Origin: Escherichia coli
GTDB lineage: Bacteria; Pseudomonadota; Gammaproteobacteria; Enterobacterales; Enterobacteriaceae
Length of the DNA stretch: 64,000 nucleotides
Strand: one strand, 5' to 3'
Assembly: GCF_048403405.1 (NCBI RefSeq)
Contig: NZ_CP183129.1
Shown in pieces: positions 29,039 to 33,052 of this stretch (its first letter is position 1; every line of letters starts with the position of its first letter). The notes under the pieces were generated by a model that was given only the letters and a program-made list of their open reading frames with translations, did not search any database and was not told where the DNA came from. A program made the translations under genes and the position numbers.

Positions 29039-29362
29039 ATGAAGTGGATAGTAATTGACACGATAATTCAACCTACATGCGGCATATCTTTTTCAGCCAT
29101 ATGGGGTGATATGAAAATGATCATCTGGTATCAATCTACTATATTTCTCCCTCCTGGCAGTATATTTAAACCGGTTAAATCTGGTATTATCTTTAAGGAT
29201 AAAGAATACCCTATTACTATTTATAATATCGCACCATTCAACAAGGATTTATGGATTTTACTCAAAAGCAGTCAAGAGTGTCCTCCAGGAGAAAGCGAAA
29301 TAACAAATAAATGTTTACATAATAGTTGTATTATAAAAATATGCCCATATGGACTCAAGTAA
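29039..29362 (+). CDS. iraM: Anti-adaptor protein IraM (RssB inhibitor; PhoPQ-regulated in K-12)
   Basis: 107-aa [46 protein letters not shown]...; strongly AT-rich gene and upstream region. Confidence 0.8.
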
Positions 29363-29464
29363 TGGGCTTCATATAAATATGCTCGACATGCTATTAATAA
29401 TATCCACATAAATAAAACAACGGGCGTGTTATACGCCCGTTTCATTATTTAACACATGTAGAGA

Positions 29465-30715
29465 TTACATGTTCTTGATGATCGCATCACCAAACTCGCT
29501 ACATTTCAGCAATTTAGCGCCTTCCATCAGACGTTCGAAGTCATAGGTTACGGTCTTGGCGTTGATTGCGCCTTCCATACCTTTAACAATCAGGTCTGCG
29601 GCTTCAGTCCAGCCCATATGGCGCAGCATCATCTCAGCGGAGAGAATAATAGAGCCAGGGTTAACTTTGTCCTGACCGGCATATTTCGGCGCAGTACCGT
29701 GGGTGGCTTCAAACAGGGCGCATTCGTCACCGATGTTTGCGCCTGGGGCGATACCGATACCGCCGACCTGTGCAGCCAGAGCGTCAGAAATGTAGTCACC
29801 GTTCAGGTTCATACAGGCGATAACATCATATTCAGCCGGACGCAGCAGGATCTGTTGCAGGAATGCATCAGCAATCACATCTTTAATGACGATCTCTTTG
29901 CCGGTATTCGGGTTTTTAACTTTCAGCCACGGGCCGCCGTCGATCAGTTCACCGCCAAACTCTTCACGCGCCAGCTGGTAGCCCCAGTCTTTAAACGCGC
30001 CTTCGGTGAACTTCATGATGTTGCCTTTGTGCACCAGGGTCACAGAGTCACGATCGTTAGCAATTGCGTATTCGATCGCGGCACGGACCAGACGTTTGGT
30101 GCCTTCTTCAGAACACGGCTTAATACCGATACCGCAATGTTCCGGGAAGCGAATTTTCTTCACGCCCATCTCTTCACGCAGGAATTTAATCACTTTCTCG
30201 GCGTCGGCAGAGTCAGCTTTCCATTCGATACCCGCATAAATGTCTTCCGAGTTTTCACGGAAGATAACCATATCGGTCAGTTCAGGATGTTTAACCGGGC
30301 TTGGGGTGCCCTGATAGTAACGTACCGGACGCAGGCAGATGTAGAGATCCAGTTCCTGGCGCAGGGCAACGTTCAGAGAACGAATACCGCCACCAACCGG
30401 AGTGGTCAGAGGGCCTTTAATGGCAACGCGATATTCACGAATCAGATCAAGGGTTTCAGCAGGCAGCCAGACATCCTGACCATAAACCTGTGTGGATTTT
30501 TCACCGGTGTAAATTTCCATCCAGGAGATTTTACGCTCGCCTTTATAGGCTTTCTCGACTGCAGCGTCGACCACTTTCAGCATGGCTGGGGTTACATCTA
30601 CACCGATTCCATCACCTTCAATGTAAGGGATAATCGGATTTTCAGGAACGTTGAGTTTGCCGTTTTGCAGGGTGATCTTCTTGCCTTGTGCCGGAACAAC
30701 TACTTTACTTTCCAT
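29465..30715 (-). CDS. icd: NADP-dependent isocitrate dehydrogenase
   Basis: 416-aa [49 protein letters not shown]...; full-length. Confidence 0.95.
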
Positions 30716-30886
30716 TCACCTCTCCTTCGAGCGCTACTGGTTTGCTCGTCTGCCACCACGTTGCATATGCGTTTGCGTCCTGCGATACGGATGCATTAGA
30801 GCAATTTTTTGTTAATGATTTGTAATTGGCTTGTCAATACTACCCTATTGTTTGCCGTCATGAAAGATGCGCGTTATTAGGCTATA

Positions 30887-30937
30887 ATGCGGCAATTCAT
30901 AATCTCTGAAAATACCATGCAAAAAACTTCTTTTAGA
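30887..30937 (+). pseudogene. Displaced 5' remnant of rluE (first ~17 codons) separated from the gene body by ~1.5 kb of inserted DNA
   Basis: Reads ATG CGG CAA TTC ATA ATC TCT GAA AAT ACC ATG CAA AAA ACT TCT TTT AGA = MRQFIISENTMQKTSFR, matching my recollection of the K-12 RluE N-terminus; frame then diverges into nonsense and stops at 31030; an 11-bp motif cttcttttaga recurs at 32439-32449 inside the functional rluE. Confidence 0.45.
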
Positions 30938-31176
30938 CCAAAGACAGTATTTTTCAGACCTTCAAATAAGGCATTAAATATCAATAAGTTACACCAGTTT
31001 TTAAGCAATAAAAAAAACCACCAGAGATAACTAACAGGATGCTATTTGGTCAAAATTTGACATTACTCGACTCAGCGACTATCTCACTTTGAGCACTATT
31101 GGGAAAATTATCAAAAGTCATGGTTGAAGCGACAAGCAACGAGTAAATTATGGCATCCCCCCTTTTTGAGGTTCAC

Positions 31177-31263
31177 ATGAAACGCTTTGCACTGATAGCT
31201 GTGAAACTCGTTGCCTTTACTGGTTCTGCATCTGCTGCAACCGAAGAAATCAACTTCAAGTAA
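31177..31263 (+). CDS. Micro-ORF (28 aa, MKRFALIAVKLVAFTGSASAATEEINFK) preceding the two-gene module
   Basis: ATG 6 nt downstream of gagg; signal-peptide-like hydrophobic core; below 60-aa track cut-off, read directly from sequence. Confidence 0.3.
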   Translation: MKRFALIAVKLVAFTGSASAATEEINFK

Positions 31264-31296
31264 CAGAAACACTATATAACAATGGAGTGTTGACAA

Positions 31297-31746
31297 ATGG
31301 ATACTACCGAAGAACGCAATGGAACATATTTCTACAGAGGACACCCGAACCTGTCCAAAATAGAACTACTCAACGTCATATTCCTTGAAGAATTCTGTAA
31401 GGAATTGGGGATTGATTCGGTATCAGGTGCAGCAATCTTATCTGGTCAACCGTGGCTGGGTACAAGAGCGAAGCCGCAAGGGGCAACCCTGGGAACAAGT
31501 GTTGTCTCAAAGTATGCGCGTATACTGATGAGAGATGCACGCATGCCTTTTGGTATTTCTGTTCATACACCAGTGGGTGTAAGGATGCAGAAATCTAATA
31601 AGCTTGCTGCAATTATCGCTCGTTGGGTCCCGTGGATTGGTTGGGCTTCACTGTCGATGAGTCTTTACAGGGTTTCGACTCGTACCCAGGAAAAATACAA
31701 TCTGATTGCCAAACCTCAAGACCGTATTAAGTGGACTTCCTTCTAA
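31297..31746 (+). CDS. Hypothetical protein (149 aa) with C-terminal hydrophobic segment; first gene of islet module
   Basis: ORF in track; RBS ggag 9 nt upstream; C-terminal predicted helix LAAIIARWVPWIGWASLSMSLY; no family recognised. Confidence 0.55.
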   Translation: MDTTEERNGTYFYRGHPNLSKIELLNVIFLEEFCKELGIDSVSGAAILSGQPWLGTRAKPQGATLGTSVVSKYARILMRDARMPFGISVHTPVGVRMQKSNKLAAIIARWVPWIGWASLSMSLYRVSTRTQEKYNLIAKPQDRIKWTSF

Positions 31747-32081
31747 TGGCGACAACAATCACAGACGAAGTTTTAGCACTGTTCCGTGATGAGATTCCAG
31801 GTTATCAGGATGACCACGGGAAGGAAATTCCGTTAGAACTGGACTCTGATTTGTTCGACTATCCACGAGATGATTTAGAGGACGCTATACGGAAATACAA
31901 AGAGAGGTTTGGGATTAACCTGGATAATCTGGACTGGTCTTTGTACCTTCCATGGGAGTCTGCACCATTGCTTCAACGATGGTTCAAGCTCAAGCGGGAA
32001 GAGGTAGAAACAACACGTTTACCGTTAACTGTACGGATGTTTGCAGAATCAGCAGAAGCGGGAAAATGGCTGTATCAGTAG
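31746..32081 (+). CDS. Hypothetical acidic protein (111 aa); second gene of islet module, translationally coupled
   Basis: Start ATG overlaps stop of upstream gene (TAATG); Asp/Glu-rich N-terminal half (DEIPGYQDDHGKEIPLELDSDLFDYPRDDLEDAI); track ORF begins 5 codons earlier at 31731. Confidence 0.55.
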   Translation: MATTITDEVLALFRDEIPGYQDDHGKEIPLELDSDLFDYPRDDLEDAIRKYKERFGINLDNLDWSLYLPWESAPLLQRWFKLKREEVETTRLPLTVRMFAESAEAGKWLYQ

Positions 32082-32401
32082 AATAAAAAAGAAGGCTGCG
32101 ATGCCCCTCTTATTACTGCTGATGATGGTAGTGGTAAAGCATCATCCTGAACTTGAACAGTGAAGTGCTGTCACCCATCAGTAATACAGAAACACTATTT
32201 TTCATACCAGTATTTATTCAATTCATCAATGTAAAATGTGTTCATTGGGCCATATTTATCACCATGCAGCCACACAACCGCTGCTCACTAACCCAGGTAT
32301 TGATGAAACCGCGCTGAAGAGCCTGAACCCTGAACCTCTAACGAGTACCTTAAAAGTCCAATGCAATCCGACACTGTGCTACCCTCTGCGTATAGCTCTA
32401 T

Positions 32402-33052
32402 TTGGAATTTACCATGAAATACTTTAGCGATTCTAAATCTTCTTTTAGAAAAAAACAGGTTAGTCGACTAAACTCGCAACACTCCACTAAGCGTAAACCT
32501 GAAAACCAGCCCACGCGCGTGATCCTGTTCAATAAACCCTACGATGTTCTTCCGCAGTTCACCGATGAAGCCGGACGCAAAACATTAAAAGAATTCATCC
32601 CGGTTCAGGGCGTTTATGCAGCAGGTCGTCTTGACCGCGATAGCGAAGGGTTACTGGTGCTGACCAATAACGGCGCGTTGCAGGCGCGTTTAACCCAGCC
32701 GGGTAAACGCACCGGAAAAATCTATTATGTGCAGGTGGAAGGTATTCCCACACAAGACGCACTTGAAGCCTTGCGCAATGGCGTAACCTTAAATGATGGC
32801 TCTACCCTGCCCGCAGGCGTAGAGCTGGTTGACGAACCCGCGTGGTTATGGCCGCGGAATCCACCAATTCGTGAACGCAAAAGTATTCCCACCAGCTGGC
32901 TGAAGATCACCTTATATGAAGGACGTAATCGCCAGGTGCGCCGCATGACCGCCCATGTTGGTTTCCCCACGCTGCGACTGATTCGCTATGCGATGGGTGA
33001 TTACTCTTTGGATAATCTTGCCAACGGCGAATGGCGAGAAGCGACAGATTAA
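32402..33052 (+). CDS. rluE: 23S rRNA pseudouridine synthase RluE with non-K-12 N-terminus
   Basis: 216-aa ORF; ...[61 protein letters not shown] (RsuA/RluE fold); first ~30 residues differ from the K-12-like remnant at 30887. Confidence 0.85.

Follow-up and report, generated by a model that had tools for sequence, protein, structure and literature searches.

A probable remnant of a serine-recombinase island in the first codons of Escherichia coli rluE, carrying a putative Hcp-linked toxin-immunity gene pair

Analysis of a 64-kb stretch of Escherichia coli DNA (contig NZ_CP183129.1 of assembly GCF_048403405.1; hereafter the window, whose positions are used throughout) indicated that the first codons of rluE, beside icd, are separated from the rest of the gene by an islet of about 1.5 kb. 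Comparison with related loci led us to interpret positions 30938-32494 as the decayed, immobile remnant of a serine-recombinase island in the first codons of rluE, carrying a putative toxin-immunity pair, a reading to which we assign a probability of about 0.72.

Alignment to the K-12 strain NCM3722 showed that K-12 homology, comprising the icd-rluE spacer and the first 51 nucleotides (nt) of rluE, ended at 30937. From the icd start through 30937 the window differed from K-12 by a single base, from 30938 it was unrelated to K-12, and after the insert rluE resumed with a new N-terminus. The rluE body downstream of the insert was intact, matching the RluE equivalog model NF008487 at 466 bits (cut-off 284). 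These results bore out the proposal of the first-pass annotation, made from the DNA letters, that the 5' end of rluE had received an insertion which left a K-12-like start (ATG 30887) displaced beside icd and the rluE promoter region and gave the rluE body a different N-terminus. That annotation had named a K-12 locus already holding the same sequence as the finding that would speak against it, and K-12 proved to have no insert. Its position for the functional start, the TTG at 32402, needs refinement: the RefSeq annotation begins rluE at the ATG at 32414 (MKYFSDSK..., 212 amino acids (aa)). The features that define the locus and the ends of the islet are the following:

29465-30715, minus strand: icd.
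30887-31030, plus strand: displaced rluE start, with 17 K-12-type codons (MRQFIISENTMQKTSFR) to 30937 and then island DNA, forming a 47-codon open reading frame (ORF).
30923-30942, plus strand: left junction repeat (attL side), holding the perfect 11-mer at 30927-30937; the same junction is found in Citrobacter-like islands.
30938-31236, plus strand: conserved left end of the island, non-coding except for a secreted-protein relic; homologous to the left ends of the islands L032 and L029.
32288-32374, minus strand: putative relic of a large serine recombinase N-terminus (VSDCIGLLRYSLEVQGSGSSARF...), 28 codons and then stops, at a fixed 39-nt spacing.
32311-32438, plus strand: conserved right end of the island, from which rluE takes its new start and opening codons (MKYFSDSK); 80.5% identical to the L032 right end.
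32414-33052, plus strand: functional rluE as annotated in RefSeq, 212 aa.
32435-32454, plus strand: right junction repeat (attR side), whose perfect 11-mer (32439-32449) lies in the reading frame of the shared SFR codons.
32450-32494, plus strand: non-K-12-like rluE stretch of 45 nt with 13 mismatches, which travels with the islet and survives in both alleles read below as scars of its loss.

The 11-mer CTTCTTTTAGA occurred exactly twice in the window, at the two junctions, against an expected count of none in 100 shuffles. When the register was counted back from the rluE stop codon, the right-hand copy fell exactly on the 11-mer of K-12. The first-pass annotation had placed this motif correctly at both boundaries, and the comparisons indicated that it is the core of a longer attachment-site repeat rather than an incidental motif. 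In E. coli the repeat extends to 20 nt at 85% identity (left, CTTCTTTTAGACCAAAGACAG; right, CTTCTTTTAGAAAAAAACAG), and a Citrobacter island that occupies this rluE site has it as a perfect 16-mer, AAAACTTCTTTTAGAA. A perfect 11-nt direct repeat at both borders is also what a transposon or insertion sequence with an 11-bp target-site duplication would leave. We considered such an origin extremely unlikely, based on the absence of terminal inverted repeats at the islet borders and of a transposase ORF in the islet, and on a megablast search of 5,426 complete E. coli genomes with 30716-32520 as the query, which found no copy of the 1.5-kb unit at an unrelated site. In addition, the right-hand repeat is part of a longer stretch that replaces the rluE 5' end in frame, and not of a duplicated target, and the enzyme encoded at the end of the island L034, described below, is a serine recombinase.

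Sister islands linked to rluE were identified solely by searching with RluE. Whereas a 49-residue query of the new N-terminus returned three E. coli fragments only, the full-length protein revealed Citrobacter-like genomes with the same odd RluE N-termini (MSNARKYSSDSKTSFR... and MRYYNDSKSSFR...), which share the pattern KYxxDSKxSFR with the window. Islands at the same rluE site were present on a Citrobacter chromosome (L029) and on two Citrobacter-like contigs, L034 and L032, the latter from a human-gut metagenome. The order in L029 is icd, an rluE start fragment, a left end like that of the window, two small secreted-protein genes, IS110, a recombinase relic (residues 1-66) and rluE. In L032 the same left end is followed by a gene for a 120-aa protein, hcp, a DUF8209 gene, a DUF1493 gene, a 23-codon recombinase relic and rluE. 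The left flank of the window matched the left ends of L032 and L029 at 78-79% DNA identity (E ~1e-112 to 1e-117) in alignments that span 30716-31236 and 30716-31199, respectively, the shared 222-nt spacer included, and its right flank (32311-32533) was 80.5% identical, across 223 nt, to the L032 right end (E 3e-56). In Citrobacter, the host rluE resumes in canonical form immediately after the perfect 16-mer (right after AGAA), which is a prediction of site-specific integration.

The same junctions bear on a different possibility, namely a one-off illegitimate insertion in which foreign DNA was anchored by rluE homology, a chance microhomology served as the joining point and no dedicated mobile element took part. 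The islet has no intact mobility gene, and its right boundary could be placed at about 32495, where K-12-like sequence returns after a 45-nt patch that looks donor-derived; both observations would suit such an event. Chance microhomology, however, would not be expected to recur across genera, and here the left junction, the island ends and the style of N-terminus were all found again in Citrobacter-like genomes with a serine recombinase or its relics, the host sequence resuming right after the perfect 16-nt repeat. We regard a one-off insertion as quite improbable.

The site-specific island favored here has a candidate enzyme in L034, which encodes, divergently from rluE, an intact 555-aa large serine recombinase with Resolvase (PF00239) and Recombinase (PF07508) domains. 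This protein had weak CcrA/CcrB matches, far below the cut-offs, and was about 26% identical to the nearest phage enzymes, which carry the annotation large serine recombinase or YbcK. In L034, L029, L032 and the window alike, 39 nt separate the start codon of the recombinase from the rluE ATG. In this fixed register the window relic (VSDCIGLLRYSLEVQGSGSSARF) and the L034 protein (MCVAIGYMRYSSKLQVAGSTIHR) have 8/23 identities without gaps, and the L032 relic is intermediate, with 17/23 identities to the window and 11/23 to L034. The catalytic-serine motif RYSS reads RYSL in the window relic, and the loci L029, L030 and L031 keep recombinase residues 1-66 at 91% identity. Based on its position, its register and the chain of homology through L032, we infer that the 28-codon stretch is a recombinase remnant; such an enzyme would have carried out the insertion. 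The earlier statement that the islet has no integrase or transposase was thus correct for intact genes and has to be amended for this relic on the minus strand.

According to this interpretation, the island would have inserted into the first rluE codons by means of its large serine recombinase and a short attachment sequence with CTTCTTTTAGA as the core. The right end of the island would have brought its own ATG and about a dozen codons, joining the rluE frame at the shared Ser-Phe-Arg codons; RluE would keep its whole catalytic body, and the original start would stay by its promoter, now opening a junk ORF that runs into the island. Decay in this E. coli lineage would have reduced the recombinase to 28 codons, a secreted-protein gene to its signal-peptide codons and hcp to its stop codon, with the translationally coupled toxin and DUF1493 genes as the part left intact. 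Without a recombinase, the islet would spread only by homologous recombination of the flanking core genes, and its loss would occur by deletion between the two junction repeats.

Four features represent the cargo, two of them as remnants:

31177-31263, plus strand: relic of the 120-aa secreted-protein gene, of which only the first ~20 signal-peptide codons are homologous, MKRFALIAVKLVAFTGSASA...
31277-31296, plus strand: hcp stop codon and hcp-toxin spacer with ribosome-binding site; L032 7051-7123 aligns to 31277-31349 at 86%.
31297-31746, plus strand: STM2901-family/DUF8209 protein, putative toxin, 149 aa (NF045926, PF26636), with hcp upstream in relatives and found at Rhs C-termini.
31746-32081, plus strand: DUF1493 protein, putative cognate immunity protein, 111 aa, acidic, with no signal peptide and a fold model like that of an acyl-carrier protein (ACP).

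The two intact cargo genes overlap by one base (TAATG at 31746), in agreement with the coupled two-gene module described in the first-pass annotation, which had not identified the cargo. The 149-aa protein scored 156 bits against the NCBIfam STM2901-family model NF045926 (cut-off 110) and was assigned to Pfam PF26636/DUF8209 via precomputed annotations, the Pfam-A copy that we searched having no DUF8209 model. Its only hit in that search, to KELAA, was rejected as a chance match. The 111-aa protein was identified as DUF1493 (E 1e-29). Neither protein had a relative by sequence in the PDB, neither matched a PADLOC defence-system model at E<=1, and the structure model of the toxin had no match to any solved fold. 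The predicted structure of DUF1493 had an ACP-like fold. A true ACP combines four helices with a conserved serine that opens helix II and serves for phosphopantetheine attachment, and this combination was not found in DUF1493. The searchable literature held nothing on the function of DUF8209, DUF1493 or STM2901, and no reported activity for either family.

The genomic context of relatives was more informative. In nine of 11 loci from non-Escherichia species recovered from the genome collection, the toxin gene is preceded at 12-17 nt by the end of a full-length hcp, and full-length hcp also lies upstream of it in two metagenomic contigs, L024 and L032. Relics of the last hcp codons were found at hcp-less loci in Cronobacter, Lelliottia amnigena, isolate RIT714 and Salmonella (STM2901), and the homology of the window to L032 begins exactly at the hcp stop codon. 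The position of the toxin gene directly downstream of hcp in relatives implies that the toxin would be delivered through the Hcp tube, as part of a type VI secretion system (T6SS). A profile search of 1.84 billion representative proteins identified 392 relatives of the toxin domain, many of which have the domain at the extreme C-terminus of longer proteins. All five long proteins tested had the RHS-associated core TIGR03696 (46-67 bits, cut-off 32.5), followed by a PxxxxDPxG boundary motif and a C-terminal STM2901-family domain. A DUF1493 gene followed the toxin gene in all loci examined, including behind one such Rhs tip in a distant organism, and the L032 toxin and DUF1493 proteins were 46% and 40% identical to the window pair, which indicated that toxin and protector diverge together. 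The hcp linkage, the reuse on Rhs proteins, the downstream DUF1493 gene and this co-divergence are what characterises polymorphic toxins and their immunity proteins, with Hcp as the delivery route in this case. Together, these data make it probable that the cargo is a decayed hcp-linked toxin-immunity cassette, with the 149-aa protein as putative toxin and the DUF1493 protein as putative immunity protein; from the same gene arrangements we infer the toxin-immunity activity of the pair and its dependence on a T6SS. No T6SS was noticed within the 64-kb window.

Two small, overlapping genes could also form a self-contained toxin-antitoxin module (for addiction or abortive infection) that acts in the producing cell and is not a T6SS effector-immunity pair. 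In E. coli, Salmonella, Lelliottia amnigena and others the pair has no hcp beside it, and both ORFs were intact in all the variants examined. Nevertheless, hcp is adjacent in most species and has left relics in hcp-less loci, the toxin domain is reused as the C-terminal tip of a delivery scaffold, the Rhs proteins, and the order of toxin gene and then protector gene is that of effector-immunity cassettes. Considering also the lack of PADLOC matches, we judged a self-contained module unlikely and retained the interpretation of an hcp-linked cassette.

Decayed loci were also observed elsewhere. In approximately 42 E. coli genomes, a truncated hcp is fused directly to a truncated DUF1493 gene (L005, strain AR_0128, 5789-6111), another decayed cassette of the same kind, which adjoins a His-Xaa-Ser radical-SAM system (hxsABCD) in a region holding an integrase pseudogene and a relaxase gene. 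[quoted passage not shown]

As to how widespread the islet is, which the first-pass annotation had raised, the megablast found the first 222 nt of the query in all complete E. coli genomes but one and the whole insert in 374 of the 5,426 (~7%), always at this locus and with identical junctions. The site is empty in ~93% of E. coli, including K-12, the O157:H7 reference strains, sequence type 131 (ST131) and Nissle. The islet copies diverge by up to ~2% among themselves, and RefSeq already annotates them as "STM2901 family protein", "DUF1493 family protein" and rluE. Escherichia sp. E1V33 carries the islet with identical junctions at 95-98% identity to the window, with only 91% identity in the rluE body. 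In other genera, DNA homology to the islet was limited to exactly the two cargo genes. We had suspected a donor species with the module upstream of rluE, and none of the 11 species toxin-gene loci proved to be near rluE or icd. The first 785 nt of the islet were also found, at 99.9% identity, in the record of a 175-kb E. coli plasmid (CP088590.1, 147518-148303), together with a second matching place; this piece could be chromosomal DNA captured on the plasmid or an assembly artefact.

The stretch just inside the right junction deserved separate attention. Between 32450 and 32494 the window differed from K-12 at 13 of 45 nt, and identity returned to ~99% after 32494. The 45-nt patch accompanied the islet in all the backgrounds examined (the window, UTME-7, 23S01245-7, 100248 and E1V33), and only two of the 5,426 genomes, TR01 and HS-02, had it without the islet. 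In both, a K-12-type start is joined to the patch: TR01 (E. coli O157:H7; L004 1965-2104) reads ...CTTCTTTTAGA-CC-AAAACAGG, and HS-02 (E. coli; L025 2501-2640) reads ...CTTCTTTTAGA-AA-AAAACAGG. The CC and AA versions are the two products expected from crossovers between the repeats on either side of this dinucleotide, and we read the two alleles as scars of islet loss, in line with two independent deletions, although one of them is possibly a site that was never occupied.

These alleles also address whether the islet could be ancestral in Escherichia, the K-12 arrangement being a later deletion. The internal diversity of up to 2% and the presence of the islet in Escherichia sp. E1V33 would be compatible with an old islet, and deletions between the repeats do occur. 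Such a deletion, however, yields the TR01 and HS-02 alleles, which keep the 45-nt patch, and not the K-12 allele. Furthermore, the K-12-type N-terminus MQKTSFRNH.V.RF is the one common to Citrobacter, Enterobacter and Kluyvera, and the relics of a recombinase, of hcp and of another gene are marks of an acquired, decaying element. An ancestral islet is thus very unlikely, and acquisition followed by decay remains our preferred account. To explain the 45-nt patch, we propose that the E. coli islet was imported by homologous recombination from a diverged donor already carrying the island, with crossovers in the nearest conserved stretches on either side. On the left, one crossover could have fallen in a 32-nt block that E. 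coli and Citrobacter share without a difference and that reaches up to the junction; on the right, the first K-12-matching stretch begins after 32494. The identical patch boundaries in E1V33 and strain 100248 fit this import.

Several results weigh against the interpretation of the islet as the remnant of a recombinase-borne island with a toxin-immunity cassette. The 45-nt patch is not predicted by simple site-specific integration into a K-12-like rluE and needs the extra step proposed above. The DNA alignment of the window relic to the intact L034 gene was no better than those of shuffles, and tblastn gave no hit at E<=1. None of the 5,426 complete E. coli genomes had an intact recombinase, so that integration was never observed within E. 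coli. The left end of L034 was not recovered, and no single contig shows attL, cargo, intact recombinase and attR together. With regard to the cargo, hcp is absent from the window, where only its stop codon and the spacer are left, and synonymous and nonsynonymous substitutions in the two genes were too few to show purifying selection.

The expression of rluE behind the islet was considered from the following predicted element:

30860-30888, plus strand: predicted sigma-70 promoter of the icd-rluE spacer (ATGAAA-17-TATAAT), based solely on its match to the consensus; K-12 has the identical sequence.

The -10 box TATAAT (30883-30889) overlaps the annotated K-12-type rluE ATG at 30887. In addition, the annotation of several RluE proteins from Citrobacter starts at the second Met (MQKTSFR), where the NCBIfam RluE model also begins. 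Based on these observations, the true K-12 rluE start may be the second ATG, at 30917, in which case only seven true codons were displaced. All the islet genes point in the rluE direction, which makes read-through from the old promoter possible, and no further convincing plus-strand promoter was predicted inside the islet. In strain 100248 (L038 2822-3999) an IS3-family element lies between DUF1493 and rluE, and rluE is intact. This gives a hint, and only a hint, that an rluE promoter may lie in the last ~230 nt, namely in the recombinase relic that every decayed island has kept.

Comparison with described systems placed both halves of the islet in familiar company. Like the orphan ('auxiliary') hcp-effector-immunity cassettes, the cargo has, in relatives, a small protein encoded directly after hcp and a co-diverging protector gene next to it, and decayed copies are scattered in genomes; unlike them, the window has lost hcp, leaving the putative effector-immunity pair alone. 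Rhs C-terminal toxin tips offer a second parallel, the same toxin domain being reused after the PxxxxDPxG boundary. The insertion resembles that of SCCmec, in which CcrA/CcrB act at the end of rlmH/orfX: in both, a large serine recombinase is involved, the insertion is at the extreme end of a gene for rRNA modification, short direct repeats mark the borders, element-borne sequence preserves the target frame and the cargo varies between conserved ends. The rluE island differs in targeting the 5' end and not the 3' end, and must therefore supply a start codon and probably a promoter; moreover, its hosts are enterobacteria and not staphylococci, and the E. coli islet has lost its enzyme. Prophage e14 and related elements integrate into the icd 3' end and carry a surrogate gene end that keeps the target functional. 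They share the chromosomal neighbourhood and the surrogate-end trick with the rluE islet, but use another recombinase and another attachment site and target icd rather than rluE, and no e14 gene was seen in the window. There, in the region 29039-29465, iraM lies directly beside the icd 3' end with no e14 gene between them. At this place the closest complete genome, CFSAN061763, has an IS200C copy that is not in the window. Finally, STM2901-STM2902 of Salmonella, beside invH, encodes both families in the order seen here and is 69% identical in DNA, with a 3' relic of hcp upstream, but occupies another chromosomal site that has no rluE junction, no such repeats and no recombinase relic.

The islet itself is already known, being annotated in hundreds of RefSeq genomes, and it is an ordinary kind of object, an accessory, decaying island with a toxin-immunity pair and nothing exotic; the findings overturn no current understanding. 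It is possible, although we would not count on it, that one or both of the following are undescribed: a DUF8209 toxin family with an ACP-mimic protector, and a family of rluE-specific serine-recombinase islands. STM2901/DUF8209 may be a new antibacterial toxin family delivered via Hcp or on Rhs tips, and DUF1493 may be an ACP mimic without the carrier serine. An ACP-like protector suggests a toxin that is directed against ACP, or against a step of lipid synthesis that binds ACP, and that is stopped by a decoy of its own target; the fold model thereby offers a concrete route to the target. A testable function is thereby proposed for two widespread enterobacterial families, including Salmonella STM2901 and STM2902, which the searchable literature mentions as landmarks only. 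As for the islands, they may be specialised for the first rluE codons, supplying a surrogate start codon and presumably a promoter; the searchable literature held nothing on rluE as an integration site. The locus provides an example of island decay in which a 5'-end-targeting island becomes a fixed islet and then behaves as any ordinary allele does, with exchange by homologous recombination and, now and then, a deletion at its repeats. The intact L034 recombinase and its ~16-nt core site could be of interest as a serine integrase for genome engineering.

Of the two micro-ORFs in the first-pass annotation, the one at 31177-31263 was explained as the leftover signal-peptide end of the 120-aa gene (residues 1-18 of the L032 protein matched the window at 75% identity, E 6e-4, by tblastn), which in other strains is frameshifted or has indels of 5 or 6 nt. 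The other found no support and falls largely in the remaining feature of the islet:

32082-32287, no strand: unassigned spacer, including the second micro-ORF (32041-32163); a terminator-like hairpin is predicted on the minus strand only, at 32107-32092.

Homologue searches with this micro-ORF and spacer found none outside this locus, and no Rfam family was identified in 30600-32600 at E<=1. In L034, two genes beside the intact recombinase (188-2257; 358 and 311 aa) had no Pfam, NCBIfam or PADLOC match; at the DNA level they were ~65% similar to hypothetical genes that a few E. coli chromosomes and 105-kb plasmids carry. Among E. coli strains, the most variable part of the islet was the left flank (30938-31296), with 10-18 substitutions plus indels in 359 nt, compared with 0-2 substitutions in each of the two islet genes; its length varied through an A-run at ~31010 and a 5- or 6-nt indel at ~31225.

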